Positions 4,862 through 40,562 of a stretch of DNA of 64,000 bases are shown here, one piece after another. A model generated the notes under the pieces. The model was given only the letters and a program-made list of their open reading frames with translations. It did no database searches and was not told the DNA's origin. A program made the position numbers and the translations under genes. The stretch spans positions 8,178 through 72,177 of the forward strand of contig CBDUBJ010000002.1 of assembly GCA_965365355.1 (NCBI GenBank). Direction: 5' to 3'. The first letter of the stretch is position 1; the number at the start of each line of letters is the position of its first letter. This DNA is from an uncultured bacterium. GTDB taxonomy: Bacteria; Bacteroidota; Bacteroidia; Flavobacteriales; Flavobacteriaceae.

Positions 4862-6400
4862 ATGAAAAAAAATTACGACGTGTTATTGATTTTGGAAGGA
4901 ACATACCCGTTTAACGGCGGTGGTGTTTCAACTTGGGCGCACATGCTCTGCTCTAAAGTCAAAAATGTTGATTTTTCCCTGTATTCAATCAATGCCGATT
5001 TTGAAGTTACGCCGAAATACGATGTGAGCAACATCAAAAATTTGGTGCAGCTTCCAATGTGGTCTCCACTTGAGCCACAGGAAATGATCGACTACGGAAA
5101 AAAGTACCACAAGTTTGTAGCACGGAAAGAAAAGCAGGATGAGCATGTTGTTCGTGAAGTTTTTCTTCCTGTTTTCGAACGCCTGATCGCCAATATTTAT
5201 TCTGATATTACAGATGTTGAAGAATTGGACGATACCATCTACGCGATGTGGAGATTCTTCCAGAAGCATGATTACAAAAAGACGATGAAAAGCGAACTGG
5301 TGTGGAAATCTTTTTGCTACCATGTTACAGATATTCTTGCCGGAGATAATGAAAAAGCGACTATTTACGATCTGACTGTCGGAATGCGCTGGATCTACCG
5401 TTTCCTGATGCCGCTTTCGATCGAAGTTCCGAAAGCTGATATTTCGCATTTAACGCTTGCCGGATTCCCTGTGATTCCTGCCCTTGTTTTGAAATACAAA
5501 TACGGAACACCGATGATTGTTACCGAGCACGGCGTTTACATCCGTGAGAGGCTGATTGCGATCAACACTTCGGAATACTCATTTTTCCTGAAGAAAATGC
5601 TGATCAAGTTCTCTGAATGCATCACCGAACTAGTTTATTATAAGGCCGATAAAATACTTTCCGTCAATAAATTTAACATTGCGTGGGAAAAACTTTACGG
5701 AGCGAATCCTAACAAGATTGAGATCATTTATAACGGAATCGATCACAATCTTTTTGTACCGGCTCCGAAACCTGAGCATTTGGCAGGAATTCCGACTGTT
5801 GTAGCTGCGGCCCGAATTTTTGAACTTAAAGATGTTCTTACGATGATCCGCTCATGCGATGTCGCAAGAAGGACGATCCCAAATGTACGTTACCTTGTGT
5901 ATGGCGACAATAACGCCGTTCCCGAATATACGGCAGAGTGCGAAAAGCTTATTGATGAACTGGATCTAAGGCAGAATTTCTTCCTTGCCGGCTATCATTC
6001 AAAACCACATGCATTGTTTGCTGAAGGTGACATTTCGATACTGACATCCATTTCCGAAGGTTTTCCATATACCGTTTTAGAATCAATGAGCTGCGGAATC
6101 CCCGTCGTGGCCACTGATGTTGGCGGTGTTACCGAAGCTTTGGATGATACTTGCGGATTTATCTGCAAACCAAAAGATTACGTAGAAATCGGAGCCCGAG
6201 TTGTTGAGCTGCTTCAAAATGAAGAATTGCGCAAACAGATGGGAGCGAATGCCAGAAGGAAAGTCGTTGAAAACTTTACCATCGGTAAATTTATCAGCGA
6301 ATATGAAGAAGTTTATGCACGTGTTGCCAGAAAAGAAAACAAAGAAGTTGTCGAACCAATATTTATACAGCTTGATGACCAACGTCAGGCAGCCTCATAA
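4862..6400 (+). CDS. pelF: PelF-like GT4 glycosyltransferase (DUF3492 + GT4)
   Basis: N-terminal LILEGTYPFNGGGVSTW matches the PelF signature (EGTxPxxxGGVSxW); TEHGVYIRER; GT4 E-x7-E motif SEGFPYTVLESM. Confidence 0.9.
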   Translation: MKKNYDVLLILEGTYPFNGGGVSTWAHMLCSKVKNVDFSLYSINADFEVTPKYDVSNIKNLVQLPMWSPLEPQEMIDYGKKYHKFVARKEKQDEHVVREVFLPVFERLIANIYSDITDVEELDDTIYAMWRFFQKHDYKKTMKSELVWKSFCYHVTDILAGDNEKATIYDLTVGMRWIYRFLMPLSIEVPKADISHLTLAGFPVIPALVLKYKYGTPMIVTEHGVYIRERLIAINTSEYSFFLKKMLIKFSECITELVYYKADKILSVNKFNIAWEKLYGANPNKIEIIYNGIDHNLFVPAPKPEHLAGIPTVVAAARIFELKDVLTMIRSCDVARRTIPNVRYLVYGDNNAVPEYTAECEKLIDELDLRQNFFLAGYHSKPHALFAEGDISILTSISEGFPYTVLESMSCGIPVVATDVGGVTEALDDTCGFICKPKDYVEIGARVVELLQNEELRKQMGANARRKVVENFTIGKFISEYEEVYARVARKENKEVVEPIFIQLDDQRQAAS

Positions 6401-6440
6401 TCACCACGCCCCAAAACCCCATTTTCCAAAACCCTACTAA

Positions 6441-8054
6441 ATGGAAAATCAGAATGAAAATATTAAATCCCTGATCAAAAACATCAGGGATAAGATTGGC
6501 AGACCTGTAAGTAACAGGGTTGTTGTAGCTACTATCGAATCCCTGGGCATCCGGAATAAGGATACCGAAAGCGACTACGGCATTCCTTCCGTTTATGAGC
6601 TGGCCGATCTTGTGTATTACGAACTCACAACATCCGACGAGCATGTAGGTGCAAAAAACCTCAAAGAGGTGGAGGCCGAACTCAACGGTCCCAAAAAAAT
6701 AACTTTTGCCGATTATCCCTGGATCAAAGCCAAAATCTTCCTGATCTACTATCCGAAAGGAATTCTTCATCTTTTACCGGTATTGCTCCAGATTGCAGCG
6801 ATCATCGTGTTTGGATATTCACTTTGGACATACGTCGGTTTTAACCACGTGCAATCGACTGCAGTTGTGCTGGGCGTGATTATCGGCTTGGTTACAACCG
6901 GCGGATTTGTTCAGGTCATCGGGCGGCAAGCTTCATTTTATTGGAATCATGAAGATTACGTAATGGTTCGAAGTACCGTCAATTATCTTTTAAAGGCCGG
7001 AACCATTGCAATATCCGTTGTGCTTTCCCTGATTTTCGTAACCAATTTCTTTTTCCACCTTTATCCGGTGGAAGTTTTGATGATCGTATTCGCATATGCC
7101 TTTCTAATCGGTTTGCTGCTATTGCTTCTTGCGCCACTGCATACCGTGCAGCAAGGCTGGATCATTTCGCTTGCAGTATTCGCGGGAACATTTGTTGCAA
7201 TTTCATTAAAAACCCAAACAATTCTTGATATATACTATACGCATTGGATCGGAATCATTGTTGCGATTGTGATCGCACGGCTTTTCCAGATATTCTTCTT
7301 CCGATGGATCATAAAGAAGAAGAAGTCAAAATCCAACCTGAGCGTTAATCCTGCGGTTTTATTCTATCACAATTATAAATTTTTCCTGTACGGATTCTTC
7401 CTTTACGTGTTCATATTTATGGACAGGATCCTGGCATGGTCGTCAACCATAAACGGTCCGCTGCCGTATGTAATATATTTTGAAAAGGATTATGAGCTTG
7501 GAATGGACATGGCAATCTTGATTTTCCTGCTTTTAACCGGTGCATTGGAGTACAGCATCGCATCCTTTACGAGATTTTTGGACATTGGGCAAAAACTCTA
7601 TGCAGCCGATTCGCCAAAAGCTTTTAACCAAAGCCTTCTTCGAATGTATTTTCAGCATGTAATATTGCTTCTGGGAACTGCTGCTGCCGTATCGGTTTTG
7701 ATCTATTATCTGATGAATGCATCGTGGGGTTATCGCGGACAATTTCATGAAGATCTACTTCAGCTCAGTGTAAACGTCTGTATAATTGGAGGCGCGGGAT
7801 ATTTAATGCTTGCATGGGGAATGCTGAACACGTTATACCTTTTTACCTTAGGGAAACCATCTCGGCCACTAAAAGCAATAATCGCCGCATGCGTCGTAAA
7901 CTTTGTTGTCGGCTTTTTCTGCAGCAGGTTCATTGCATATGAATACAGTGTTGTCGGGATGTTTGCCGGTTCGTTTGTATTCCTCGTGCTGACAATGAGT
8001 GCGAATGTTCGATTTTTTAAAAACTTAGATTATTATTACTATGCGGCTTATTAG
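6441..8054 (+). CDS. pelG: PelG-like polysaccharide export membrane protein
   Basis: About 12 hydrophobic segments directly after pelF; GGFVQVIGRQ and FIFMDRILAW segments resemble PelG; about 100-aa soluble N-terminal extension. Confidence 0.7.
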   Translation: MENQNENIKSLIKNIRDKIGRPVSNRVVVATIESLGIRNKDTESDYGIPSVYELADLVYYELTTSDEHVGAKNLKEVEAELNGPKKITFADYPWIKAKIFLIYYPKGILHLLPVLLQIAAIIVFGYSLWTYVGFNHVQSTAVVLGVIIGLVTTGGFVQVIGRQASFYWNHEDYVMVRSTVNYLLKAGTIAISVVLSLIFVTNFFFHLYPVEVLMIVFAYAFLIGLLLLLLAPLHTVQQGWIISLAVFAGTFVAISLKTQTILDIYYTHWIGIIVAIVIARLFQIFFFRWIIKKKKSKSNLSVNPAVLFYHNYKFFLYGFFLYVFIFMDRILAWSSTINGPLPYVIYFEKDYELGMDMAILIFLLLTGALEYSIASFTRFLDIGQKLYAADSPKAFNQSLLRMYFQHVILLLGTAAAVSVLIYYLMNASWGYRGQFHEDLLQLSVNVCIIGGAGYLMLAWGMLNTLYLFTLGKPSRPLKAIIAACVVNFVVGFFCSRFIAYEYSVVGMFAGSFVFLVLTMSANVRFFKNLDYYYYAAY

Positions 8055-8847
8055 GATGATACTTTTTATCCTGCCGTCGATGCTGACCGGAGGAATAGCA
8101 GCCGCACAAACGTCGCGGAGCACGATCCTTGTTTGCTATGGCCGACTCAATCCGGTCGATATAAGCGGTTATTCGTACGTCATACTGGAATCACAGTATT
8201 ATAACGCCGCCGAGATCAAAACAATAAAGGCTCAGAATGATAAAGTCGTTGCATATATCAGCGTCGGCGAGGTAAACGCTAACGCCAAGCATTTTCATAC
8301 TTTGAAAAACGAAACGCTCGGAAAGAACAGTATCTGGAACAGTTATTATCTGAATATGAATTCAGATAAAACACGCAAAGTCTTGATGGATCTCATCGGC
8401 GAAGGACTTGCGCTCGGATATGACGGCTTTTTTCTGGACAATATCGATAATTTTACGAGTTTCGGGCCGCAGGCATTACAAAAACCACAATTGATTTCAT
8501 TCCTTCAGGAACTATTTGCCAAATATCCAAACGAAACATTTGTGCAGAATGCAGGTTTGGAAATTATCGACCAGACTGCGGCATACATTGATGCGTTGCT
8601 CATTGAATCCATTGCGACCGATTACAGTTTCGACAGCAAAACTTACAAACTTCGCGCAGACGGCGATTTCAGGAACTACGCCGGAAAACTTCGTAACATC
8701 CGCGAAAAATATAAGTTGCCGGTGATATTGGTAGAATATGCCGATACTGCAAAGCTTCACGATGCCGTAACCGAACGGATCAAACCGCTGGGATTTGAAT
8801 ATTTCATCGGAAATATCGATCTGCAGACAATACCAAAATTCAGATAA
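8041..8847 (+). CDS. Secreted endo-alpha-1,4-polygalactosaminidase-like hydrolase (GH114/PelA-hydrolase-like)
   Basis: Signal peptide ending AAA-Q (start may be the ATG at 8056); VAYISVGE, GYDGFFLDNID and LLIES motifs typical of GH114-type TIM barrels. Confidence 0.8.
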   Translation: MRLIRMILFILPSMLTGGIAAAQTSRSTILVCYGRLNPVDISGYSYVILESQYYNAAEIKTIKAQNDKVVAYISVGEVNANAKHFHTLKNETLGKNSIWNSYYLNMNSDKTRKVLMDLIGEGLALGYDGFFLDNIDNFTSFGPQALQKPQLISFLQELFAKYPNETFVQNAGLEIIDQTAAYIDALLIESIATDYSFDSKTYKLRADGDFRNYAGKLRNIREKYKLPVILVEYADTAKLHDAVTERIKPLGFEYFIGNIDLQTIPKFR

Positions 8848-8848
8848 G

Positions 8849-10816
8849 ATGTTACTAACCAGTTCAATTGTTTTGGGTTTTATCCGGCTGGCGTTCATCC
8901 TGCTGTTTTTCTTCTATCTGAATAAGAAATTTGTCAATAAATCGGATTCGAATAACCTGCTTGAATTTATCGTTCATCACTGGTTTCGATATGGAAGTTT
9001 TATCGGGATCATGCTTTTCGTAACTGTACAATTGAGCCTGTATAATCTGTTCAACTGTATGATCATTTTGATATTGATCATGACTATCGATATGATAGGA
9101 CTTAAAAATCTTCAAAATTTTAGAGCATATTTCAAGAATGCCGCCGCCAAAAACCTTCATGCGATCTTAAAGACGATAGAATTGCGGCGACCAAAATTTG
9201 CCTGGCTGCGTTTACGGAAAAAATCGCAGTCGAGGAGCCGCGGATATTTTATTTTTTTCCTGGTTGTCGTTCTTGCAATATTGATCTTTGGCAGCAGGTT
9301 TTACTTTATTCGGTACGATATGTATTCGCTGTCGGGGATCTGGCTTGGCGATCTTGCCAAGGTAAAAGATTTCGATTTCCAGATTTGGTTTTTAAACAAT
9401 ATCGCTGTTTCTGGAGATTTCGCTTTCGTAAACTTTTACTCCAAACTTACCGATGTCAGCCCTGAGATCGCCCTACAATCAATGGCACTTCTGGAATCGA
9501 CGCTAATTGGAATTCTGATTTTTTGGGTTGTTCGCAAATGTACGCCTTCACGTGCCATTGCACCGGTTATCGGAGCCATGTCGTTTGCACTGGCTTATAC
9601 ACTGATGCCGGTTAACGTGTATTTCCTGCTTCAGAGCAAGCCGATCCTTTTGGCATTGTCATTCGGACTTCCCGCAATGGTTTATTTACTAAAACCTGCG
9701 TTGTTGAAATTCAGGAAGATCAATTATTTCTTCGCAATGCTTTTTGTCTTTATAACCATCGGACTGATCGATTTATTTACCTTATATATATTGCTGCCGC
9801 CATTCGTAATTCTTGCGGGAATATTTTCCAAGCGGAAATCGAAAAAGCATTTCTGGGTTGGCGCGTTGGCATACATTGCGGGAGCGCTTTCCGTCTTTAT
9901 TATATATGGCATTGTTTGCTTTTTCCTTGAAACAGATTTGGAAACTTTCATACATACCAGCCTTATTTCGATAAGTTCGTATACTTACATTCCGCAGTTG
10001 ATCATTCCTTTTGATGTGCTTATCGATTATTATCAATTGGGATCTGTGGCCGCAATGCTCGTACTATTGGTTTACATTTTTTATCTGAAGGAAAATTGGT
10101 ACGCGGCATTTGCTTTCCTGATTTACTTTAACTTGCTTGTCCTATTGGGTAAGATGAATGATCTGACCTGGATCGACAAAGATTTGTTAAGCCAGGCACT
10201 GTCGGTTTTCATGCACATTGTCGCCGGTGTTGTCATTGCCATTGTTATTCGACTTGCCAAACCGATCTCGATCCGAACAGCGCAGTTAAACGTTCCTGTA
10301 GTTGTGGCCATTATGGCCGCACTGGTTTACGCCGCGGTGTATTATCAGAAAGACATGATCAACAGCCTTGACGAGATCGACACGACCCCAAAGCAGGTTT
10401 TGGATGCATACGATAAGATATCGACAACATATTTTCCTTTTTCATACGCTGTTGTAAACGACAACACGTCGCAGGCCATCAGTACGAACAAGCACTTTTT
10501 CATGAATTATCAAGATTTCATATACGATTACCCCAAACAGGATTCAATTTACTTTGCCAACATCAAAGACCCGAAATTTTTGAAAAAAAATCCCGAGTAT
10601 GCATTACCGAAAAGTGTGTTGATCTTTGTGTTCAAAGGTCGAAAACAGAGTATGTATGGTGAAAACGGGGATATTTCGGAAATACTGATGGATCAGCTCG
10701 ACACACTGAAAAAACGTGGCAGGACAGTTCAGCTTTTCTACACAAATGACGATATCAACGTTTATGAAGTCATAAATGAGCCGGGCGAAAGCAGGGTAGT
10801 GGACCTTATTTTCTAA
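8849..10816 (+). CDS. Polytopic membrane protein with a C-terminal soluble domain (GT-C-like architecture, family unknown)
   Basis: ATG 1 nt after the GH114 stop (the ORF track starts at 8795); more than 12 hydrophobic segments, then a soluble domain of about 150 aa. Confidence 0.7.
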   Translation: MLLTSSIVLGFIRLAFILLFFFYLNKKFVNKSDSNNLLEFIVHHWFRYGSFIGIMLFVTVQLSLYNLFNCMIILILIMTIDMIGLKNLQNFRAYFKNAAAKNLHAILKTIELRRPKFAWLRLRKKSQSRSRGYFIFFLVVVLAILIFGSRFYFIRYDMYSLSGIWLGDLAKVKDFDFQIWFLNNIAVSGDFAFVNFYSKLTDVSPEIALQSMALLESTLIGILIFWVVRKCTPSRAIAPVIGAMSFALAYTLMPVNVYFLLQSKPILLALSFGLPAMVYLLKPALLKFRKINYFFAMLFVFITIGLIDLFTLYILLPPFVILAGIFSKRKSKKHFWVGALAYIAGALSVFIIYGIVCFFLETDLETFIHTSLISISSYTYIPQLIIPFDVLIDYYQLGSVAAMLVLLVYIFYLKENWYAAFAFLIYFNLLVLLGKMNDLTWIDKDLLSQALSVFMHIVAGVVIAIVIRLAKPISIRTAQLNVPVVVAIMAALVYAAVYYQKDMINSLDEIDTTPKQVLDAYDKISTTYFPFSYAVVNDNTSQAISTNKHFFMNYQDFIYDYPKQDSIYFANIKDPKFLKKNPEYALPKSVLIFVFKGRKQSMYGENGDISEILMDQLDTLKKRGRTVQLFYTNDDINVYEVINEPGESRVVDLIF

Positions 10817-29217: not shown

Positions 29218-29382
29218 GTGTAGGGATTTGGATAAAAATAGAAAAATATCTTAAAGCTCCAAATATCCTAAGATACAATGCACCAAAGCTCGCCAAACGA
29301 CAAAAAAATGAATCTGACTAATGATTGTTGGGGACTTTGGTGCTTCTCAAAAAATCACTTAATTTGTGAAAACCATCCAACC

Positions 29383-29985
29383 ATGAATTTTAACCCCGAT
29401 GATATCGGGCATTCCGAATCTTACAAATTGCTTACCGGCTCGGTAATTCCACGACCGATCGGATGGATTTCCTCGATAGATTCTAAGGGTAATCTGAATC
29501 TTGCACCATTTTCATATTTTAATATTGTCGGTGATGATCCGCCACATGTCATGTTTTCAACTGTACGGACCGGCGGCGGAAACAAGGATACACTGAACAA
29601 TGTGATGGAAACGAAAGAATTTGTCGTGAATATGGTGACCGAAGATGTAGTCGAAAAGATGAATACTACTTCGCAACAGGTTCCACCCGAAATCAATGAA
29701 TTCGAATTGGCAGGATTGACTACAGCTCCGTCCCTATTGGTGAAGCCGCCAAGAGTCCTGGAAAGTAAAATAAATTTTGAATGCAGGCTTGTACATCATT
29801 ACGAACTGGAAGATCATACGAAAGGCGGCGCGGTTATGATGGTGGGACGAATTGTCATGTTTCATATTGACGACGAGATCATATCTGATAATTTCCGCAT
29901 CAATATGAACAAATACCGACCGGTTGCAAGGCTTGCAGGTTCCAATTACACCACGTTAGGCGAAATTTTTTCAATCAAAAGATAA
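29383..29985 (+). CDS. Flavin reductase-like FMN-binding protein
   Basis: VIPRPIGWISS, NLAPFSYFN, KDTLNN and RLAG motifs; ATG at 29383 (the ORF track starts at 29278). Confidence 0.85.
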   Translation: MNFNPDDIGHSESYKLLTGSVIPRPIGWISSIDSKGNLNLAPFSYFNIVGDDPPHVMFSTVRTGGGNKDTLNNVMETKEFVVNMVTEDVVEKMNTTSQQVPPEINEFELAGLTTAPSLLVKPPRVLESKINFECRLVHHYELEDHTKGGAVMMVGRIVMFHIDDEIISDNFRINMNKYRPVARLAGSNYTTLGEIFSIKR

Positions 29986-30042: not shown

Positions 30043-32310
30043 ATGAAAATTACCGTAATTGGCGGCGGCCCCGGAGGCTTATACTTTGCAATTTTACTTA
30101 AAAAAGCCGTTCCGTCATGTTCGATCGACTTATATGAACGCAACAAATCCGACGATGCATTCGGTTTTGGTGTCGTCTTTTCGGATGAAACACTATCGGA
30201 ATTTTTAACGCGCGATCCGCAGTCGTACGAACTGATACGCAGGAGTTTTGCCTACTGGGACGATCTTGATGTCGTTCGAAATGGTGAGCGTGTGCGAATT
30301 ACAGGAAATGGATTTTGCGGCTGTTCACGAAAAACGTTGCTTCAGTTGCTGCAGCAGCGCTGTCGTGAGGAAGGCGTCAACCTTCATTATGAAACTAATG
30401 TGGATGACCTTTCGCAATTCGCGTCCAGTGATGTAATCGTTGCATGCGACGGCATCAACAGTTTTATCAGGGAACAGAAGGCCGCTGATTTTGAAACCAA
30501 TGTTATTTTGCAGCGCAATAAATTCGTGTGGCTCGGATCGACAAAACCATTGGATGCTTTTGCGTACTTCTTTCGTGAAACCGAGTTTGGGACAATTGTC
30601 GCGCACACTTATCAATACGAAGACGGCCGAAGCACTTGGATTTTCGAATGTACTCCCGAAACGTGGGAAAAGGCAGGTTTCGATACTTATAACGAAGAGG
30701 ATACCATTGCAAAGTTGTCGAATTATTTTAAGGATGAATTAGATGGCCATCCACTGATATCAAACAAATCCCACTGGCGTCAGTTTCCTACGATCACAAA
30801 TAGAAATTGGTCTGCGGGAAACGTAGTCCTGCTTGGAGATGCAAAAGCAACAGCCCACTACTCCATCGGTTCAGGGACAAAACTAGCGATGGAATGCGCC
30901 ATTTCACTGGCCGATTCGATTGCGGCAAACCAGCAAAGTATTCCTGAAGCGTTTAAAATGTATGAAAAGTTGCGAAGAAACCGCGTGGAAATGATCCAGC
31001 ATGCTGCGAAAGTTTCATTGGATTGGTTTGAACATATGGACAGGCATATCAAGCATCCATTCATGCAATTTGCTTTCGGAGTTATGACACGTGCCAAAAA
31101 GGTTACTTATGAAAACCTTGCACTTCGCGACCGATCGTTTACCGAAAAAGTTGTCGCTGAGTTTACTGCCATAAATAATTTTGAGAGGGCCATTTCTCCG
31201 GCATTTACGCCGTTTAAGTTTGGTGACCTCGAATTGATAAACCGTATTGCGATGGCGCCGATGATCCACAATATGGCGTGCGAAGGTGTCGTTGGCGATT
31301 GGCATCTGATGCATTACGGAAGCCGCGCCGTCGATGGTTTGGGATTGATTATTACAGAGCCGGTTTCGGTACATGAAAATGGCAAAATCAATGCAGGATG
31401 CGCCCTGATTTCTAATGACGAACAAGTATTGGCGTGGCGACGCATCACGGATTTTGTCAATCGGAACTCAAAATGTAAGATGGCAATCCAGCTCAATCAC
31501 GCAGGCCGAAAGACTCATAATCAATCAGGAAAAATTTCTGCGTCGTCGATAGCATTTGATAAAGATTTGGGTGTTCCGAAGGAAATGACAATTCAGGATA
31601 TGGATGAAATTGTCGGATCATTCATTGCTTCTGCCAAAAATGCTGAAAAAGCCGGTTTCGACATGATCAGCATCGAAATGAGCAGCGGATATTTGTTAGC
31701 CTCATTTTTATCACCGTTATCAAACCAACGCAGCGATGAATTCGGCGGAAGCGTTGAGCATAGAATTAAATTCCCGATGCGGGTTTTTAGTGAAGTCCGC
31801 AAAGCATTTGACGCAAATAAACCCATTTCAATTTCCATTTCCGCATCCGACTGGCATGAAGACGGAATTTCTCGATCAGATGTAATTTTTATCGCTAACG
31901 CATTTAAGAATGCAGGAGTCGATCTTATAAATGTTGTATCGGGTGGAACCATTTCAGATGAAAAAGCCGAATCCGGCCGCATGTATCAGACGCCATTTGC
32001 CGACCTTATCAGAAATACTGTCGATATTCCCGTAATAACCTCAGGGCAGATTCAGGATATCGATCAAATAAACACGATATTACTCAACGGTCGTGCGGAC
32101 ATAGTTGCATTAGGCCGTCCACTGATGCTCGATCCAGGATTTGTACGGAATGCGCAAGCTTATGAAACTTATCAGCCTGATGATATTCCGCGTGCATATC
32201 AAAGCGGAATTTCGCATCTTTATCCTTTAAGATCAGCTGAGAAACGTGAAAAGGATGCGATGAAAAAAGCATTGAAACCTGAAAGCCATTCAAGCCATAA
32301 AAACAAATGA
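30043..32310 (+). CDS. Anthraniloyl-/salicylyl-CoA 5-hydroxylase fused to an OYE-type oxidoreductase domain (AbmA/SdgC family)
   Basis: FAD monooxygenase motifs GGGPGG, ACDG and LLGDA..AHYSIGSGTKLAME; C-terminal OYE barrel (NRIAMAPM, QLNHAGRK, FLSPLSNQRSDEFGGS). Confidence 0.9.
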   Translation: MKITVIGGGPGGLYFAILLKKAVPSCSIDLYERNKSDDAFGFGVVFSDETLSEFLTRDPQSYELIRRSFAYWDDLDVVRNGERVRITGNGFCGCSRKTLLQLLQQRCREEGVNLHYETNVDDLSQFASSDVIVACDGINSFIREQKAADFETNVILQRNKFVWLGSTKPLDAFAYFFRETEFGTIVAHTYQYEDGRSTWIFECTPETWEKAGFDTYNEEDTIAKLSNYFKDELDGHPLISNKSHWRQFPTITNRNWSAGNVVLLGDAKATAHYSIGSGTKLAMECAISLADSIAANQQSIPEAFKMYEKLRRNRVEMIQHAAKVSLDWFEHMDRHIKHPFMQFAFGVMTRAKKVTYENLALRDRSFTEKVVAEFTAINNFERAISPAFTPFKFGDLELINRIAMAPMIHNMACEGVVGDWHLMHYGSRAVDGLGLIITEPVSVHENGKINAGCALISNDEQVLAWRRITDFVNRNSKCKMAIQLNHAGRKTHNQSGKISASSIAFDKDLGVPKEMTIQDMDEIVGSFIASAKNAEKAGFDMISIEMSSGYLLASFLSPLSNQRSDEFGGSVEHRIKFPMRVFSEVRKAFDANKPISISISASDWHEDGISRSDVIFIANAFKNAGVDLINVVSGGTISDEKAESGRMYQTPFADLIRNTVDIPVITSGQIQDIDQINTILLNGRADIVALGRPLMLDPGFVRNAQAYETYQPDDIPRAYQSGISHLYPLRSAEKREKDAMKKALKPESHSSHKNK

Positions 32311-34587: not shown

Positions 34588-35283
34588 ATGGCAAATTATT
34601 TAATCGTCGGCGGGTCGTCAGGAATAGGAAAAGCCCTTACCAAGAAGCTTGCGGATGCAGGCAACAAGGTTTTCGCGTCATATTACAGTAATGATCAAAA
34701 TCAGGATGCGGATAACATTACCTATTTCAGGATGAATGTGCTTGATGAGGTTCCGCTTGATTTTTTGCCCGAAACAATTGACGGACTTGCCTATTGCCCG
34801 GGTTCAATAAATTTGCGCCCGTTCGAACGCATAAAACCGACGGATTTTATTGACGATTTCAATTTGCAGGTCGTCGGCGCGATAAAAATGATCCAGGTAG
34901 CATCAGCACGAATGAAACGAAGCGAAGCGGCATCAATCGTCCTTTTTTCGACGGTCGCCGTACAAACCGGATTGCCGTTTCACACGCAGGTATCAACTTC
35001 GAAAGGCGCACTTGAAGGATTGACGAAAGCGCTCGCTGCGGAATATGCACCAAAGATCCGTGTGAATTGCATCGCTCCTTCATTGACCGACACGCCTTTG
35101 GCTTCAAATCTTCTTAACAGCGATCAGAAAAAAGAAGCCAACGCCCTGCGACATCCGATGAAAAGGATTGGCAGCGTTGACGACATTGCTTCGGCCGCAG
35201 AATTTTTATTATCATCGAAATCAAGCTGGATAACGGGACAGATTTTACACGTCGATGGCGGTATATCGTCGCTTCGGGTTTGA
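34588..35283 (+). CDS. Atypical SDR oxidoreductase
   Basis: GGSSGIG, NCIAPSLTDT and ITGQILHVDGG; the YxxxK position reads VSTSK. Confidence 0.85.
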   Translation: MANYLIVGGSSGIGKALTKKLADAGNKVFASYYSNDQNQDADNITYFRMNVLDEVPLDFLPETIDGLAYCPGSINLRPFERIKPTDFIDDFNLQVVGAIKMIQVASARMKRSEAASIVLFSTVAVQTGLPFHTQVSTSKGALEGLTKALAAEYAPKIRVNCIAPSLTDTPLASNLLNSDQKKEANALRHPMKRIGSVDDIASAAEFLLSSKSSWITGQILHVDGGISSLRV

Positions 35284-35332: not shown

Positions 35333-36322
35333 ATGGAATTTTCCCATTTTAAAGCTGCAGCCGTACAAACTTCACCGATTTTTCTAAATGTCGAAAAGAC
35401 GATCGATAAAGCAATTTCGATCATAAAAGAAGCGGCGGGTAATGGCGCACAGCTCATTGCATTTCCGGAAGTGTTTATTTCCGGATATCCGTATTGGAAC
35501 TGGATCATGACGCCGGTTCAGGGCAGCAAATGGTACGAGCAATTGTACCGCAATTCGGTTTCGGCGGACAGTCCTGAAATTGAAAGGATTTGCGAGGCCG
35601 CGAAAAAAAATGACATCCATGTGGTCATCGGAATGAACGAACGCGGTTCGAGTTATGGCGAAATTTACAACACGAACCTGATCATCGATAACATAGGAAA
35701 GATCGTCGGAAAGCACAGGAAATTGGTTCCGACATGGGCAGAGAAACTAACATGGACATCAGGCGACGGATCGTCTTTAAAAGTATATAACACGGAAGTT
35801 GGTCCGATCGGAACGCTGGCATGCGGCGAAAACACCAACACTTTGGCGCGCTTTACATTGTTGTCGCAGGGTGAGCTGATCCACATCGCAAATTACATTT
35901 CGCTTCCGGTCGCGCCTCCTGACTATAATATGGCCGAAGCAATAAAGATCCGCGCTGCAGCACATTCATTCGAAGGAAAACTGTTCACAATCGTTTCGTG
36001 TTCGACCATATCGAAAGAGATCATGGACATCATGAAAGAAGATGTTCCAAATGCAGAAGAATTGCTCACGCGGACGAATTCCGCTTTTTCAGGCTTTATC
36101 GGTCCGAATGGCGCTGTAATCGGCGATCCCTTAATCGACGATGAAGGAATAGTGTATGCCGATATAGATCTTTCCAAGTGCATCCAGCCAAAACAAATGC
36201 ACGATATATTGGGGCATTATAACCGGTTTGACATTTTTGATCTTAGAGTCAATACAGCTCCAACAAAGAAGATCACATTCGTTAATAGCAATGAGGAATT
36301 TTTCAAAAGGGAAATCCGTTAA
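35333..36322 (+). CDS. Nitrilase-superfamily carbon-nitrogen hydrolase
   Basis: Glu-Lys-Cys triad: FPE, HRKLVPT, LACGENTN; DILGHYNRFDIF tail. Confidence 0.9.
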   Translation: MEFSHFKAAAVQTSPIFLNVEKTIDKAISIIKEAAGNGAQLIAFPEVFISGYPYWNWIMTPVQGSKWYEQLYRNSVSADSPEIERICEAAKKNDIHVVIGMNERGSSYGEIYNTNLIIDNIGKIVGKHRKLVPTWAEKLTWTSGDGSSLKVYNTEVGPIGTLACGENTNTLARFTLLSQGELIHIANYISLPVAPPDYNMAEAIKIRAAAHSFEGKLFTIVSCSTISKEIMDIMKEDVPNAEELLTRTNSAFSGFIGPNGAVIGDPLIDDEGIVYADIDLSKCIQPKQMHDILGHYNRFDIFDLRVNTAPTKKITFVNSNEEFFKREIR

Positions 36323-36351: not shown

Positions 36352-37452
36352 ATGGACGGAAAATACAGCGATGACGTCATTGGCCGGGCCCGAGTTCAGG
36401 ATACGCCCGAACTGGAGGCTTATTACAACGAGCTTTCAGAACTTGGCGCAGGTGCGCTCTGGACTGTTGCAAATGACATTGAGCCGTGGGAACCGCGTGC
36501 TTCATCAGTTCCGATGCTTTGGCGGTATGACGATTTGCGGGATTTGGTTTTGAGATCTTCGGAACTCGTAACACCGGAAAAAGCAGGACGACGTGTGGTT
36601 TATCTGGTAAATGATAAGCGTCGCGACGTAAGTGCTGCAGTTGGCTGGCTTTACACCGGAATTCAGGTCACGCGGCCCGGCGAAAGCACTTCTGCTCACA
36701 GGCATAAGGCATCGGCATTGCGATTTATCATGGAAGGCGAAGGAGGCTATACGGTTGTCGATGGGAATAAGATCACGTTTGAAGTCAACGATTTTGTTAT
36801 TACCCCTAATTCAACATGGCATGAGCACGGCGTTGTCGAAGGCGGTAAAACATGCATTTGGCAGGACGGTCTCGACATTCCGCTGGTTAATGCGCTTGAA
36901 GCCAATGATTATGCGGTTTTTGATGGAAAACAGCCTTTGGAAAAGCCGGTAAACTATTCACCTATGACATTTTCCGGTGCAGGCTTGCGTCCGACATATG
37001 AAAATTGGGACAAGCCATATTCACCGCTGTTTAAATATGAATGGAAGAATGTATATCCTGCACTTCAGGCTGCGGCGGCCGCGGGCGAAGGCTCGCCGTA
37101 CGATGGAATCATCATGCATTATACAAATCCGAAAGATGGCGGTCATGTGATGCAAACACTCGGCGCATCGATGCAGATGCTTTTGCCCGGACAACATACA
37201 AAAGCGCATAGACATACCGGATCATTTGTTTTTCAATGTGCCAAAGGCCGTGGTTATACGGTGGTCAACGGAAAGCGTTTCGATTGGAAAGAACGCGATA
37301 TTTTCTGCATTCCGTCATGGATGTGGCATGAACATGTGAATTTGAGCGATAGTGAAGATGCATGTTTGTTTTCGTTCCACGATTTGCCGGTGATTGAAAA
37401 ACTGGGTCTGTATCAGGAAAAGGCATATGACCAAAACAATGGCTATCAATAG
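36352..37452 (+). CDS. Gentisate 1,2-dioxygenase-like bicupin
   Basis: AHRHKASALRF and WHEH in the N-terminal cupin; AHRHTGS and WHEH in the C-terminal cupin; WQDGLDIPL. Confidence 0.9.
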   Translation: MDGKYSDDVIGRARVQDTPELEAYYNELSELGAGALWTVANDIEPWEPRASSVPMLWRYDDLRDLVLRSSELVTPEKAGRRVVYLVNDKRRDVSAAVGWLYTGIQVTRPGESTSAHRHKASALRFIMEGEGGYTVVDGNKITFEVNDFVITPNSTWHEHGVVEGGKTCIWQDGLDIPLVNALEANDYAVFDGKQPLEKPVNYSPMTFSGAGLRPTYENWDKPYSPLFKYEWKNVYPALQAAAAAGEGSPYDGIIMHYTNPKDGGHVMQTLGASMQMLLPGQHTKAHRHTGSFVFQCAKGRGYTVVNGKRFDWKERDIFCIPSWMWHEHVNLSDSEDACLFSFHDLPVIEKLGLYQEKAYDQNNGYQ

Positions 37453-37602: not shown

Positions 37603-38520
37603 ATGAAACTCGTTACATACAGTTACAACGATTCGATCCAGAGGATTGGCGTCATGCAAAACGACTCGATCATAGATATAAGCCAACTTGGAGCAATTGT
37701 CGGGAAAGATTTTCCGGTTACGATGCTCGACCTGATTGATTTCGGATTTCCGATGGTAGAGAAAATTTCGAAGGCAATTTCGGACCATGCATCAGACCTT
37801 GCCGGAATTTCGCATCCGGTTGAAAAGGTTAAGCTGCTCGCCCCTATTCCGCGGCCGCGAAAAAATATCATTGGAATCGGCCTTAATTATACGGAACATG
37901 TTGCCGAGAGCGCCAGAACGCTGGATACATCTAACGAGCTCCCGCAGCAACCCGTTATTTTCTCGAAACCTCCTACGGCTGTAATCGGTACGAATGAAGA
38001 TATCCTGCACAACCGCAAACTGACAAAGCAGCTTGATTGGGAAGTTGAACTGGCGGTGATCATTGGCAAAAAAGGAAAGTATGTCAAAAAAGAAGATGCG
38101 CTTGATTATGTGTTTGGATATACGGTCATCAATGACATCAGTGCACGCGACTGCCGCCGTGCAGGGCAATGGATCGTTTCAAAAGGCCAGGATACTTTTG
38201 CGCCTATGGGCCCGTGCATTGTAACAAAAGATGAAATTCCCGATCCGCATAATCTCAATCTGTGGCTTACACTGAACGGAATCGAAAAACAGCGCTCAAA
38301 CACGAAGTTCATGTTGTTCAACATCAATGACCTGATTGAAGATCTAAGCACTGTTTTTACAATTGAAGCCGGCGATATCATTGCAACGGGAACGCCTTCG
38401 GGAGTTGGCGCAGGCCGAAATCCGCAGGAATGGATGTGGGACGGCGACCTCGTGGAGGCTACGGTTGAAGGAATTGGGACGATTGTGAATACGGTGAAGG
38501 AATTGAGAGTTGAGAGTTGA
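37603..38520 (+). CDS. Fumarylacetoacetate hydrolase family protein (maleyl-/fumarylpyruvate hydrolase-like)
   Basis: GIGLNYTEH, IFSKPP, LDWEVEL, NDISARD, KGQDTF, GDIIATGTPSGVG. Confidence 0.9.
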   Translation: MKLVTYSYNDSIQRIGVMQNDSIIDISQLGAIVGKDFPVTMLDLIDFGFPMVEKISKAISDHASDLAGISHPVEKVKLLAPIPRPRKNIIGIGLNYTEHVAESARTLDTSNELPQQPVIFSKPPTAVIGTNEDILHNRKLTKQLDWEVELAVIIGKKGKYVKKEDALDYVFGYTVINDISARDCRRAGQWIVSKGQDTFAPMGPCIVTKDEIPDPHNLNLWLTLNGIEKQRSNTKFMLFNINDLIEDLSTVFTIEAGDIIATGTPSGVGAGRNPQEWMWDGDLVEATVEGIGTIVNTVKELRVES

Positions 38521-39592: not shown

Positions 39593-39686
39593 GGATGCTG
39601 GCGGCTCGCAACGCACATTGGATTTTTTTTTAATTTTACGTTGATTGCAGGATTACTCTACCTGCCCGATGCATAAAATAATTTCA

Positions 39687-40562
39687 ATGTCATTGCAACT
39701 TACCCAGATCGAACGCGTTAAAACAATCACTAAGGAAGAGTTTTACAATAATTACGTGAAAAAGCAAAAGCCTGTCGTTATCGAAAGACTGACGCAGGAT
39801 TGGCCCGCTTTCCATAAATGGAATTTGGATTATATCAGTCAGATTGCCGGAAGTAAGACTGTGCCGCTTTACGATGACCGACCGGTTTCTCACAAAGACG
39901 GTTTTAACGAGGCTCATGCTAAGATGAAAATGTCTGATTACATCGAGCTTCTTAAACGCGAACCAACCAATTACAGGATATTTCTATATAACCTGATGAA
40001 GGAAGTGCCGTCGTTAAAGAGTGATTTTATATGGCCGGATATCGGACTCAGCTTGGTTAAGCAATTGCCAATGTTATTTTTCGGCGGTTCGAATTCCAAA
40101 GTATTCATGCATTTCGATATTGATTATTCTAATATTTTGCATTTCCATTTTCACGGCGAAAAGCAGTGCATTCTATTCCCGCCCGATCAAACAAAATATT
40201 TATATAAGGTTCCTCATGCATTGATCTCTAGAGAGGATATCGATTTTGATAATCCTGATTTTGAGAAATGGCCGGCACTTAAACATGCAAGCGGATGGAA
40301 AACAAATCTCAAGCATGGCGAAATGCTTTATATGCCGGAAGGATATTGGCACTATATGAAATATCTTACGCCGGGATTTTCGATGAGTCTCCGTGCTTTG
40401 CCGAAAACGATGTCAAACATTTCAAAAGCGGTGTACAATGTTTTCGTTATGAGGCATTTCGACAACTGGATGCGGAAAAGAAAAGGCCAGAAATGGATCG
40501 ATTATAAAAACAGGCGTGCGATCGAAAATACGCATAAGGCATTAGGACTTCCAACCAACTAA
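39687..40562 (+). CDS. JmjC/cupin-8 2OG-Fe(II) oxygenase
   Basis: KPVVIE, LFFGG, H-x-D in MHFDID, G(E)MLYMPEGYWH. Confidence 0.85.
   Translation: MSLQLTQIERVKTITKEEFYNNYVKKQKPVVIERLTQDWPAFHKWNLDYISQIAGSKTVPLYDDRPVSHKDGFNEAHAKMKMSDYIELLKREPTNYRIFLYNLMKEVPSLKSDFIWPDIGLSLVKQLPMLFFGGSNSKVFMHFDIDYSNILHFHFHGEKQCILFPPDQTKYLYKVPHALISREDIDFDNPDFEKWPALKHASGWKTNLKHGEMLYMPEGYWHYMKYLTPGFSMSLRALPKTMSNISKAVYNVFVMRHFDNWMRKRKGQKWIDYKNRRAIENTHKALGLPTN

Follow-up and report, generated by a model that had tools for sequence, protein, structure and literature searches.

Why should a nitrilase gene lie packed against the gene of an aromatic ring-cleavage dioxygenase? This question is raised by a stretch of 64,000 nucleotides from an uncultured member of the Flavobacteriaceae (GenBank assembly GCA_965365355.1, contig CBDUBJ010000002.1, positions 8,178 to 72,177 of the forward strand), which we refer to in full as the window and to which all unlabelled positions below refer. 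It contains a gene that we call NIT:

35333..36322, + strand: NIT, branch-1 nitrilase homologue (ATG start, 329 aa; Glu46, Lys130, Glu137 and Cys164; motif ACGENTN)

A preliminary description, made from the sequence of the window, had proposed that NIT is a nitrilase fold recruited convergently for the hydrolysis of maleamate or of the amide formed by ring cleavage. We find that the enzyme itself is of a familiar kind and that its physiological setting is new and conserved, a catabolic module that is shared by several bacterial phyla. The role that we favor for it, and to which we give about an even chance of being correct, is the release of ammonia after ring cleavage of 5-hydroxyanthranilate, yielding maleate.

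NIT is a branch-1 nitrilase by sequence

The only Pfam match of NIT is to PF00795 (CN_hydrolase; 141.8 bits, residues 7-285), a domain that spans the protein. Its closest solved homologue is the nitrilase NitA (6ZBY; E = 4.5e-67), the alignment of residues 5-318 with 7-319 running from end to end, and its 13 best matches in the PDB are exclusively nitrilases or cyanide (di)hydratases (E = 4.5e-67 to 4.8e-43), while amidases and formamidases match far more weakly (1e-5 to 1e-8). Among the curated NCBI models, TIGR04048 (the Nit6803 family) scores best, with 236.5 bits against a cut-off of 502.6; the models for amidases, formamidases and carbamoylases reach 30-57 bits, with NF009802 and NF009803 at 30-40 against cut-offs of more than 400.

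The intact Glu-Lys-Cys triad reported in the preliminary description is borne out by an alignment of 15 sequences (lowest identity 36%), in which Glu46, Lys130 and Cys164, as well as Glu137, are invariant; these residues align with the corresponding set of NitA. The cysteine context ACGENTN is read at residues 162-168, and the dioxygenase gene begins 29 nt past the NIT stop codon on the same strand, so that triad, motif and tight packing at 35333-36322 are all as first described. Compared with most of its relatives, NIT has Tyr188-Ile189 instead of Trp-Pro, and it shows about 30 clade-specific positions. By every sequence criterion NIT classifies as a true nitrilase of branch 1.

The maleamate amidohydrolases NicF and Ami have an isochorismatase-like fold. 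The assertion that NIT is not homologous to NicF proved correct: NIT matches PF00795 only, and no protein matching PF00857 (isochorismatase) was found in the whole genome, which is 98% complete.

The branch-1 nitrilase active-site signature is Cys-Trp/Ala-Glu; NIT has Cys-Gly-Glu (CGE) instead. This glycine had been put forward as distinguishing NIT from typical nitrilases and hinting at an amidase, a view that we had to abandon, since in the 150 nearest representatives of NIT, taken from a library clustered at 50% identity, the residue after the catalytic cysteine is most often glycine (79 sequences), followed by tryptophan (41) and alanine (4). The CGE relatives include fungal and deltaproteobacterial proteins annotated simply as nitrilases. 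NitA itself has a small residue at this position (Cys-Ala-Glu), and its A165G variant groups, in mandelonitrile conversion, with the variants that keep Ala165 (PMC6930498). Because CGE is the majority state among the relatives and in view of the behavior of NitA A165G, the departure from the signature is no argument against nitrilase membership; as judged from these comparisons, the motif argues neither for nor against an amidase function.

NIT belongs to a conserved ring-cleavage module

The genes surrounding NIT in the window, with coordinates and strand, are:

29278..29985, +: flavin-reductase-like protein, relative of NbaA (2-nitrobenzoate nitroreductase); PF01613; PDB 3BPK (1.2e-42) and 4Z85 (7.6e-33)
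30043..32310, +: AbmA/SdgC-type aryl-CoA 5-hydroxylase fused to an old yellow enzyme (OYE)-like half without the His pair; NF006101, 864.6 bits
32307..33911, +: aryl-CoA ligase of the benzoate-CoA ligase family; TIGR02262, 323.6 bits
34153..34584, +: 4HBT-type acyl-CoA thioesterase, presumed to act on hydroxylated aryl-CoA; PF13279/PF03061
34588..35283, +: short-chain dehydrogenase/reductase (SDR) between thioesterase and NIT, a strain-specific insertion with no counterpart at this position elsewhere
36352..37452, +: gentisate-family bicupin dioxygenase of the GDOsp (3BU7) clade; 549.7 bits to 3BU7
37603..38520, +: FAH-family acylpyruvate hydrolase; PF01557, 240 bits
38574..39326, +: maleate cis-trans isomerase; 321.8 bits to 4FQ7 (Iso of P. 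putida S16)
39645-40562, +: Cupin_8/JmjC-like gene, after a gap of 318 nt from the isomerase gene

The dioxygenase falls below the cut-offs of TIGR02272 (295 versus 442) and of the MabB model (276 versus 650). Like GDOsp, to which it is about 62% identical, it carries a His-x-His...His metal motif twice (AHRH...WHEH), once in each cupin half, and the Fe ligands His119, His121 and His160 are kept in its alignment with 3BU7; in the E. coli gentisate dioxygenase (GDO; 2D40), the C-terminal half is devoid of the His metal motif. The isomerase keeps both catalytic cysteines (YACLVA and SCCVQMP) and, on this evidence, is a genuine maleate isomerase.

Close NIT orthologues (68-87% identity) are found in 80 genome records, nearly all of them from Flavobacterium, the others being from Paenimyroides, Sphingobacterium, Soonwooa and a metagenome-assembled genome of the Cytophagaceae. 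The gene order is near-invariant: flavin reductase-like protein, hydroxylase, aryl-CoA ligase, thioesterase, NIT, dioxygenase, FAH enzyme and maleate isomerase. Neighbors were counted over the 70 orthologous loci with enough downstream sequence for the dioxygenase gene, and over 55 loci for the FAH and isomerase genes. The dioxygenase gene lies downstream of NIT in all 70 and the FAH and isomerase genes in all 55, and upstream we found the hydroxylase gene in 69, the thioesterase gene in 68 and the ligase and flavin reductase genes in 67 each of the 70. In a sample of 400 Bacteroidota genomes, NIT orthologues occur in three of the 15 other genomes of the genus, and gentisate-family dioxygenases were matched only in the four NIT-bearing genomes, which, being close kin, count as one observation.

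The loci of Sphingobacterium and Soonwooa also carry genes of the kind used for indole oxidation, for a StyA-like oxygenase, a flavin reductase and SDRs; no ligase gene was found at these two loci. In both (L112 and L113, about 4900-9800, - strand) an SDR, the StyA-like monooxygenase (Smoa_sbd) and the flavin reductase are encoded between hydroxylase and NIT, on the strand opposite to theirs.

The module extends to other phyla

Searching plasmid records by tblastn for NIT and the dioxygenase, we recovered NIT orthologues of 59-67% identity and, adjoining them, dioxygenases of 58-67% identity. NIT, the dioxygenase clade, FAH and MaiA occur together in R. pomeroyi, Sagittula, Shinella, Burkholderia, Caballeronia, Ralstonia and Embleya. 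In all 11 plasmid records with a NIT-type (type-1) nitrilase, a GDOsp-clade dioxygenase gene is adjacent. The recruitment is not confined to Flavobacterium, the module being spread over Bacteroidota, Proteobacteria and Actinomycetota. In R. pomeroyi, the dioxygenase is identical, letter for letter, to the crystallized GDOsp (3BU7), whose gene begins 18 nt past that of the NIT orthologue.

In R. pomeroyi, Sagittula and Shinella, the genes for NIT, dioxygenase, FAH enzyme and isomerase are divergent from those for IorA, IorB, a thioesterase and a MarR protein, while a single row of genes, for IorA, IorB, thioesterase, hydroxylase, dioxygenase, FAH enzyme, NIT and isomerase, is found in Burkholderia SFA1, Caballeronia and Ralstonia. 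Genes for an IorAB-type 2-oxoacid oxidoreductase thus replace the ligase gene in Proteobacteria, where the thioesterase gene is retained; the flavin reductase-like gene is also present at the loci of Burkholderia, Ralstonia, Aminobacter, Tistrella, Novosphingobium and Sulfitobacter. Four proteobacterial loci include 'cyclase' genes of the isatin hydrolase/kynurenine formamidase family (PMC6117287). In Embleya sp. NBC_00888 (L124, 5734-15000), genes for tryptophan 2,3-dioxygenase, an Amidohydro_1 protein, kynureninase and an AraC regulator immediately precede those for NIT, dioxygenase, FAH enzyme and isomerase, and within 12 kb of this locus no AbmA-type hydroxylase or ligase gene was found. 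Two classical gentisate loci used as controls (Streptomyces and Alicyclobacillus) have a hydroxybenzoate-type monooxygenase, a GDO and an FAH enzyme, with neither a nitrilase nor a maleate isomerase.

The sister of the dioxygenase-linked NIT clade (52% identity, motif CGENTNT) is encoded on plasmid pPNAP04 of Polaromonas naphthalenivorans CJ2 (L118, 11093-17835). Its neighbors are genes for an IclR regulator and for an ABC transporter of the Liv/Urt type, and none for a dioxygenase; its substrate may be a small amide or nitrile that the cell imports.

A second nitrilase subfamily occupies the place of NIT

In the records of Aminobacter, Tistrella and Novosphingobium (two records), the dioxygenase clade and the FAH enzyme are accompanied by a different CN-hydrolase, with the canonical motif CWENYMP and 32-34% identity to NIT, which we call type 2 (L120, 12039-13603; L123, 19047-20651; L121; L122). 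In Aminobacter and Tistrella its gene abuts or overlaps the flavin reductase gene. In a FastTree phylogeny of 121 sequences with SH-like support, the dioxygenase-linked type-1 enzymes are monophyletic (support 97-98) and fall within the half of the tree that holds the CGE sequences, and the type-2 enzymes sit in the other half, among Nit6803-like sequences. As the two types lie in separate halves, two nitrilase subfamilies were recruited separately, and this replacement of NIT by type 2 suggests that nitrilase-type chemistry is what the module selects for. The only residue convergently common to both types was Gly64, and no specificity signature emerged from the comparison.

A nitrilase of either type is present in 15 of the 17 plasmid records of the GDOsp clade that were examined (in seven of these 15 by match coordinates only). 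The exceptions are a Cupriavidus locus disrupted by an insertion sequence and a locus of Sulfitobacter alexandrii with a RidA gene. At the latter, the RidA-family gene and a thioesterase gene are on the opposite strand; the locus may have a different way of removing nitrogen, or may be a plain gentisate locus.

A proposed role in ammonia release after ring cleavage

NIT remains constant with dioxygenase, FAH enzyme and isomerase while the upstream part of the module varies (ligase, IorAB or none), and is therefore best placed in the lower pathway rather than at its entry. It is also the only C-N hydrolase conserved in the module, in which the nitrogen of anthranilate must be lost at some step, and a genuine isomerase with both catalytic cysteines points to maleate as the C4 product. 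Anthranilate, derived from tryptophan, indole or isatin, is very probably the compound that enters the pathway, because the module is flanked, in one phylum or another, by genes for kynureninase and tryptophan dioxygenase, the isatin-hydrolase-like 'cyclase', StyA-like oxygenases and hydroxylases of the AbmA type. In the genome studied here, kynureninase and tryptophan dioxygenase genes are present outside the cluster.

In the scheme that we propose, the aryl-CoA ligase would activate anthranilate, the AbmA/SdgC-type enzyme would hydroxylate it para to the amino group, and the thioesterase would release 5-hydroxyanthranilate; where the ligase is absent, the IorAB enzymes presumably make the aryl-CoA from isatinate. 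The lower module would then consist of the nitrilase, the GDOsp-type dioxygenase with its two His sites, the FAH acylpyruvate hydrolase and the maleate isomerase, usually with the NbaA-like flavin reductase. The dioxygenase would cleave the C1-C2 bond of the ring without removing the nitrogen from C2, which would emerge as a carboxamide or cyano carbon, and the FAH enzyme would remove pyruvate. Cys164 of NIT would attack the nitrogen-bearing carbon, and the resulting thioimidate or tetrahedral adduct would pass to a thioester with loss of ammonia, from which water would free maleate, to be turned into fumarate by the isomerase. Gene content, catalytic residues, homologies and synteny across phyla are observed; we infer the identities of all these substrates, whether the FAH enzyme or NIT acts first, and whether NIT meets an amide (maleamate) or a nitrile ((Z)-3-cyanoacrylate). 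The NbaA-like reductase may keep the autoxidizable p-aminophenol reduced.

In the hydroxylase of the window, the OYE half reads IEMSSGYL (31672-31695) where YqjM-type enzymes have IHAAHGYL, both substrate-binding histidines being gone, while other Flavobacterium and the proteobacterial hydroxylases read LQAHHG or LQAGHG, with only the first histidine replaced. Loss of the pair fits an aromatic product of the hydroxylase, although this is a side issue for NIT. Action of NIT on a reduced, Abm-type enaminone CoA ester was considered and set aside, since the OYE half is without its His pair and a dioxygenase acting on an aromatic ring follows.

Several observations weigh against ammonia release after ring cleavage. 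The dioxygenase of the window keeps all the gentisate contacts (Arg83, Gln108, Arg127, His162, Trp172 and Asp174) that are described for salicylate and gentisate dioxygenases (PMC11264262). At the type-2 loci there is no maleate isomerase gene nearby, and the Sulfitobacter alexandrii plasmid (L125, 11989-15479) has dioxygenase, FAH, reductase and RidA genes with no nitrilase gene. GDOsp, the R. pomeroyi orthologue of the dioxygenase, is reportedly a gentisate dioxygenase, so gentisate could be the real substrate, with nitrogen released before cleavage. To our knowledge, no ring cleavage at an amino-bearing carbon has been shown for the class of gentisate-family dioxygenases, nor are we aware of any branch-1 nitrilase that acts physiologically on an amide. 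The amidases of the superfamily belong to branches other than branch 1 (PMC7815647).

Amide or nitrile

The recruitment of a nitrilase fold for maleamate or a ring-cleavage amide, as suggested in the preliminary description, stands only in part: NIT is fixed in a module with a maleate isomerase, of which it is the only conserved C-N hydrolase, but an amide is not favored over a nitrile, given the CWENYMP type-2 enzymes. For the amide, the canonical mechanism of the dioxygenase ends in hydrolysis, and the breakdown of nicotinate and of nicotine is known to pair maleamate with a maleate isomerase acting after it. For the nitrile, there is a chemical parallel in the oxidative cleavage of o-phenylenediamine, which gives mucononitrile. 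Enzymes of the Nit6803 type prefer small unsaturated nitriles such as fumaronitrile (PMC7815647). Both enzymes recruited to the module are by sequence true branch-1 nitrilases, whereas the amidases of the superfamily fall in other branches (PMC7815647).

We consider it rather unlikely, though worth stating, that the dioxygenase opens 5-hydroxyanthranilate to a nitrile and that NIT acts as a true nitrilase on a cyano-maleylpyruvate analogue or on (Z)-3-cyanoacrylate. Here the cyano group would come from the fragmentation of a cyclic imidate that arises once oxygen has been inserted, and such a cleavage would explain why two true nitrilase subfamilies, and no amidase, are found in the module.

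Alternative explanations

An unlikely explanation, which the gentisate contacts would support, is that nitrogen is lost before ring cleavage, NIT converting 5-hydroxyanthranilate, its CoA ester, its quinone-imine or a dearomatized form into gentisate or gentisyl-CoA and ammonia. The dioxygenase would then be an ordinary gentisate 1,2-dioxygenase, as its likeness to GDOsp would have it, and NIT would fill the enzyme gap in the route from anthranilate to gentisate that is reported for Nocardia opaca. Cain's sequence from anthranilate through 5-hydroxyanthranilate and gentisate to maleylpyruvate is on record (PMC4539516); moreover, the NbaA-like flavin reductase, potentially a quinone reducer, travels with the module, and RidA, of the imine/enamine deaminase family, stands in for NIT at one locus. 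However, the GDOsp clade is distinct from the classical GDOs, falling below the TIGR02272 cut-off, and almost never occurs without a nitrilase. We rate this explanation below ammonia release after ring cleavage because substitution of an aryl amine is, from what is known of the family, foreign to nitrilase superfamily chemistry, because a cysteine nucleophile would be prone to arylation by a quinone imine, and because the recruitment of two unrelated nitrilase subfamilies is hard to square with a non-nitrilase reaction; in addition, NH2 leaves poorly from an electron-rich ring.

That NIT is instead an entry or detoxifying enzyme, which hydrolyzes an environmental nitrile, such as a hydroxy- or aminobenzonitrile or an arylacetonitrile, to an acid that feeds into the pathway, or scavenges unrelated nitriles, appears very unlikely. 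It would suit a protein that is a nitrilase by sequence, whose nearest solved relative is an arylacetonitrilase and whose Polaromonas sister is found only with a regulator and a transporter. Yet NIT keeps to the dioxygenase, FAH and isomerase genes under any upstream module, be it ligase, IorAB, kynureninase or none; the IorAB versions have no ligase to take up the product of a nitrilase; and no gene for an aldoxime dehydratase or other nitrile-forming enzyme was found in the window.

We regard as least likely a 5-aminosalicylate-type route, in which the amino group would be at C5 and NIT would hydrolyze the enamine (vinylogous amide) 4-amino-6-carboxy-2-oxohexa-3,5-dienoate to maleylpyruvate: the dioxygenase does score nearly equally with the models for MabB, the 5-aminosalicylate dioxygenase, and for gentisate dioxygenase (276 versus 295 bits), and the RidA found in NIT's place at one locus is of an enamine-deaminating family, but the kynureninase, isatin-hydrolase-like and indole-oxygenase-like flanks point to 2-aminobenzoate rather than 3-aminobenzoate, AbmA-type hydroxylation para to the amine gives 5-hydroxyanthranilate, and the chemistry is without known precedent in the nitrilase superfamily.

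Variable and neighboring genes

The SDR encoded between thioesterase and NIT (34588-35283) was rejected as a member of the pathway, as it is absent at this position from the 83 (3 + 80) other orthologous loci; it keeps the nucleotide motif GGSSGIG, and the catalytic Tyr of its YxxxK motif is replaced by Val (QVSTSK). The Cupin_8/JmjC-like gene recurs in two of the 80 orthologous loci and is probably outside the module. Not found in the window are a 527-aa PF01645 protein (glutamate-synthase FMN domain), optionally encoded in the gap between ligase and thioesterase at 25 of the 80 loci (L034, 7944-9527, and 24 others of Flavobacterium), and an alpha/beta hydrolase encoded between hydroxylase and ligase at 11 loci. 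Promoter and terminator scans of the cluster gave the same counts as shuffled sequence and were of no help with the limits of the operon, and GC content is flat across the cluster, which tells nothing about recent transfer.

Comparison with known systems

NitA of P. fluorescens EBC191 (6ZBY) and the Rhodococcus-type enzyme 8UXU belong to the same branch 1 as NIT, match it over the full length (E = 4.5e-67 and 1.6e-64, respectively) and share its Glu/Lys/Glu/Cys set; NIT differs from them by the Gly after the Cys and by its setting in an aromatic ring-cleavage operon rather than in an aldoxime/nitrile context (PMC1199592). With NicF of P. putida KT2440 and Bordetella, and Ami of P. putida S16, it would share the reaction, the conversion of maleamate to maleate and ammonia ahead of a maleate isomerase, but unlike these enzymes it matches PF00795 only, and its maleamate activity is putative.

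Nit6803 and Nit11764 of the Nit1C cluster are, like NIT, branch-1 enzymes; they have no known physiological substrate, and it is the type-2 nitrilases that have their CWENYMP motif. NIT is set apart from the Nit6803 family by its score below the TIGR04048 cut-off, by a different gene cluster and by its place in the other half of the tree. The substrates best known for them are small unsaturated nitriles, fumaronitrile, for instance, being converted to 3-cyanoacrylate, which Nit11764 does not hydrolyze further (PMC7815647), and substrates of the fumaronitrile type are close in shape to the nitrile candidate for NIT.

A ligase is likewise combined with a fused FAD-monooxygenase/OYE hydroxylase, which acts on 2-aminobenzoyl-CoA or salicylyl-CoA, in Azoarcus evansii (Abm), in Arthrobacter sp. 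Rue61a (anthranilate-CoA route) and in Streptomyces sp. WA46 (Sdg, salicylyl-CoA route) (PMC3534580). The Abm route leads to a reduced, non-aromatic CoA ester and the Sdg route has no nitrogen to remove, whereas the window has a thioesterase, a dioxygenase, a nitrilase and a maleate isomerase instead. GDOsp (3BU7), here a partner in the module, has been characterized only as a gentisate dioxygenase. In the searchable literature we found no paper linking a nitrilase to a gentisate-type dioxygenase, GDOsp included, or to anthranilate catabolism; Podar et al. listed the contexts of the Burkholderia and Ralstonia nitrilases as 'unrelated clusters' (PMC1199592).

Significance

Few bacterial nitrilases have a known natural role, and NIT is locked in a catabolic module over at least three phyla. 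If ammonia release after ring cleavage is its role, the module would define a hitherto undescribed aerobic pathway that takes tryptophan, indole or isatin through anthranilate and 5-hydroxyanthranilate to fumarate, pyruvate and ammonia, NIT would supply the missing nitrogen-release step of the anthranilate route, and the physiological substrate of the crystallized GDOsp (3BU7) would have to be reassigned. The module would then reveal either a maleamate amidase with a nitrilase fold or a nitrile-forming ring cleavage. In the latter case, this would be the first cleavage of an aromatic ring known to yield a nitrile, and the compound hydrolyzed by NIT would join the small number of established physiological substrates of bacterial nitrilases.

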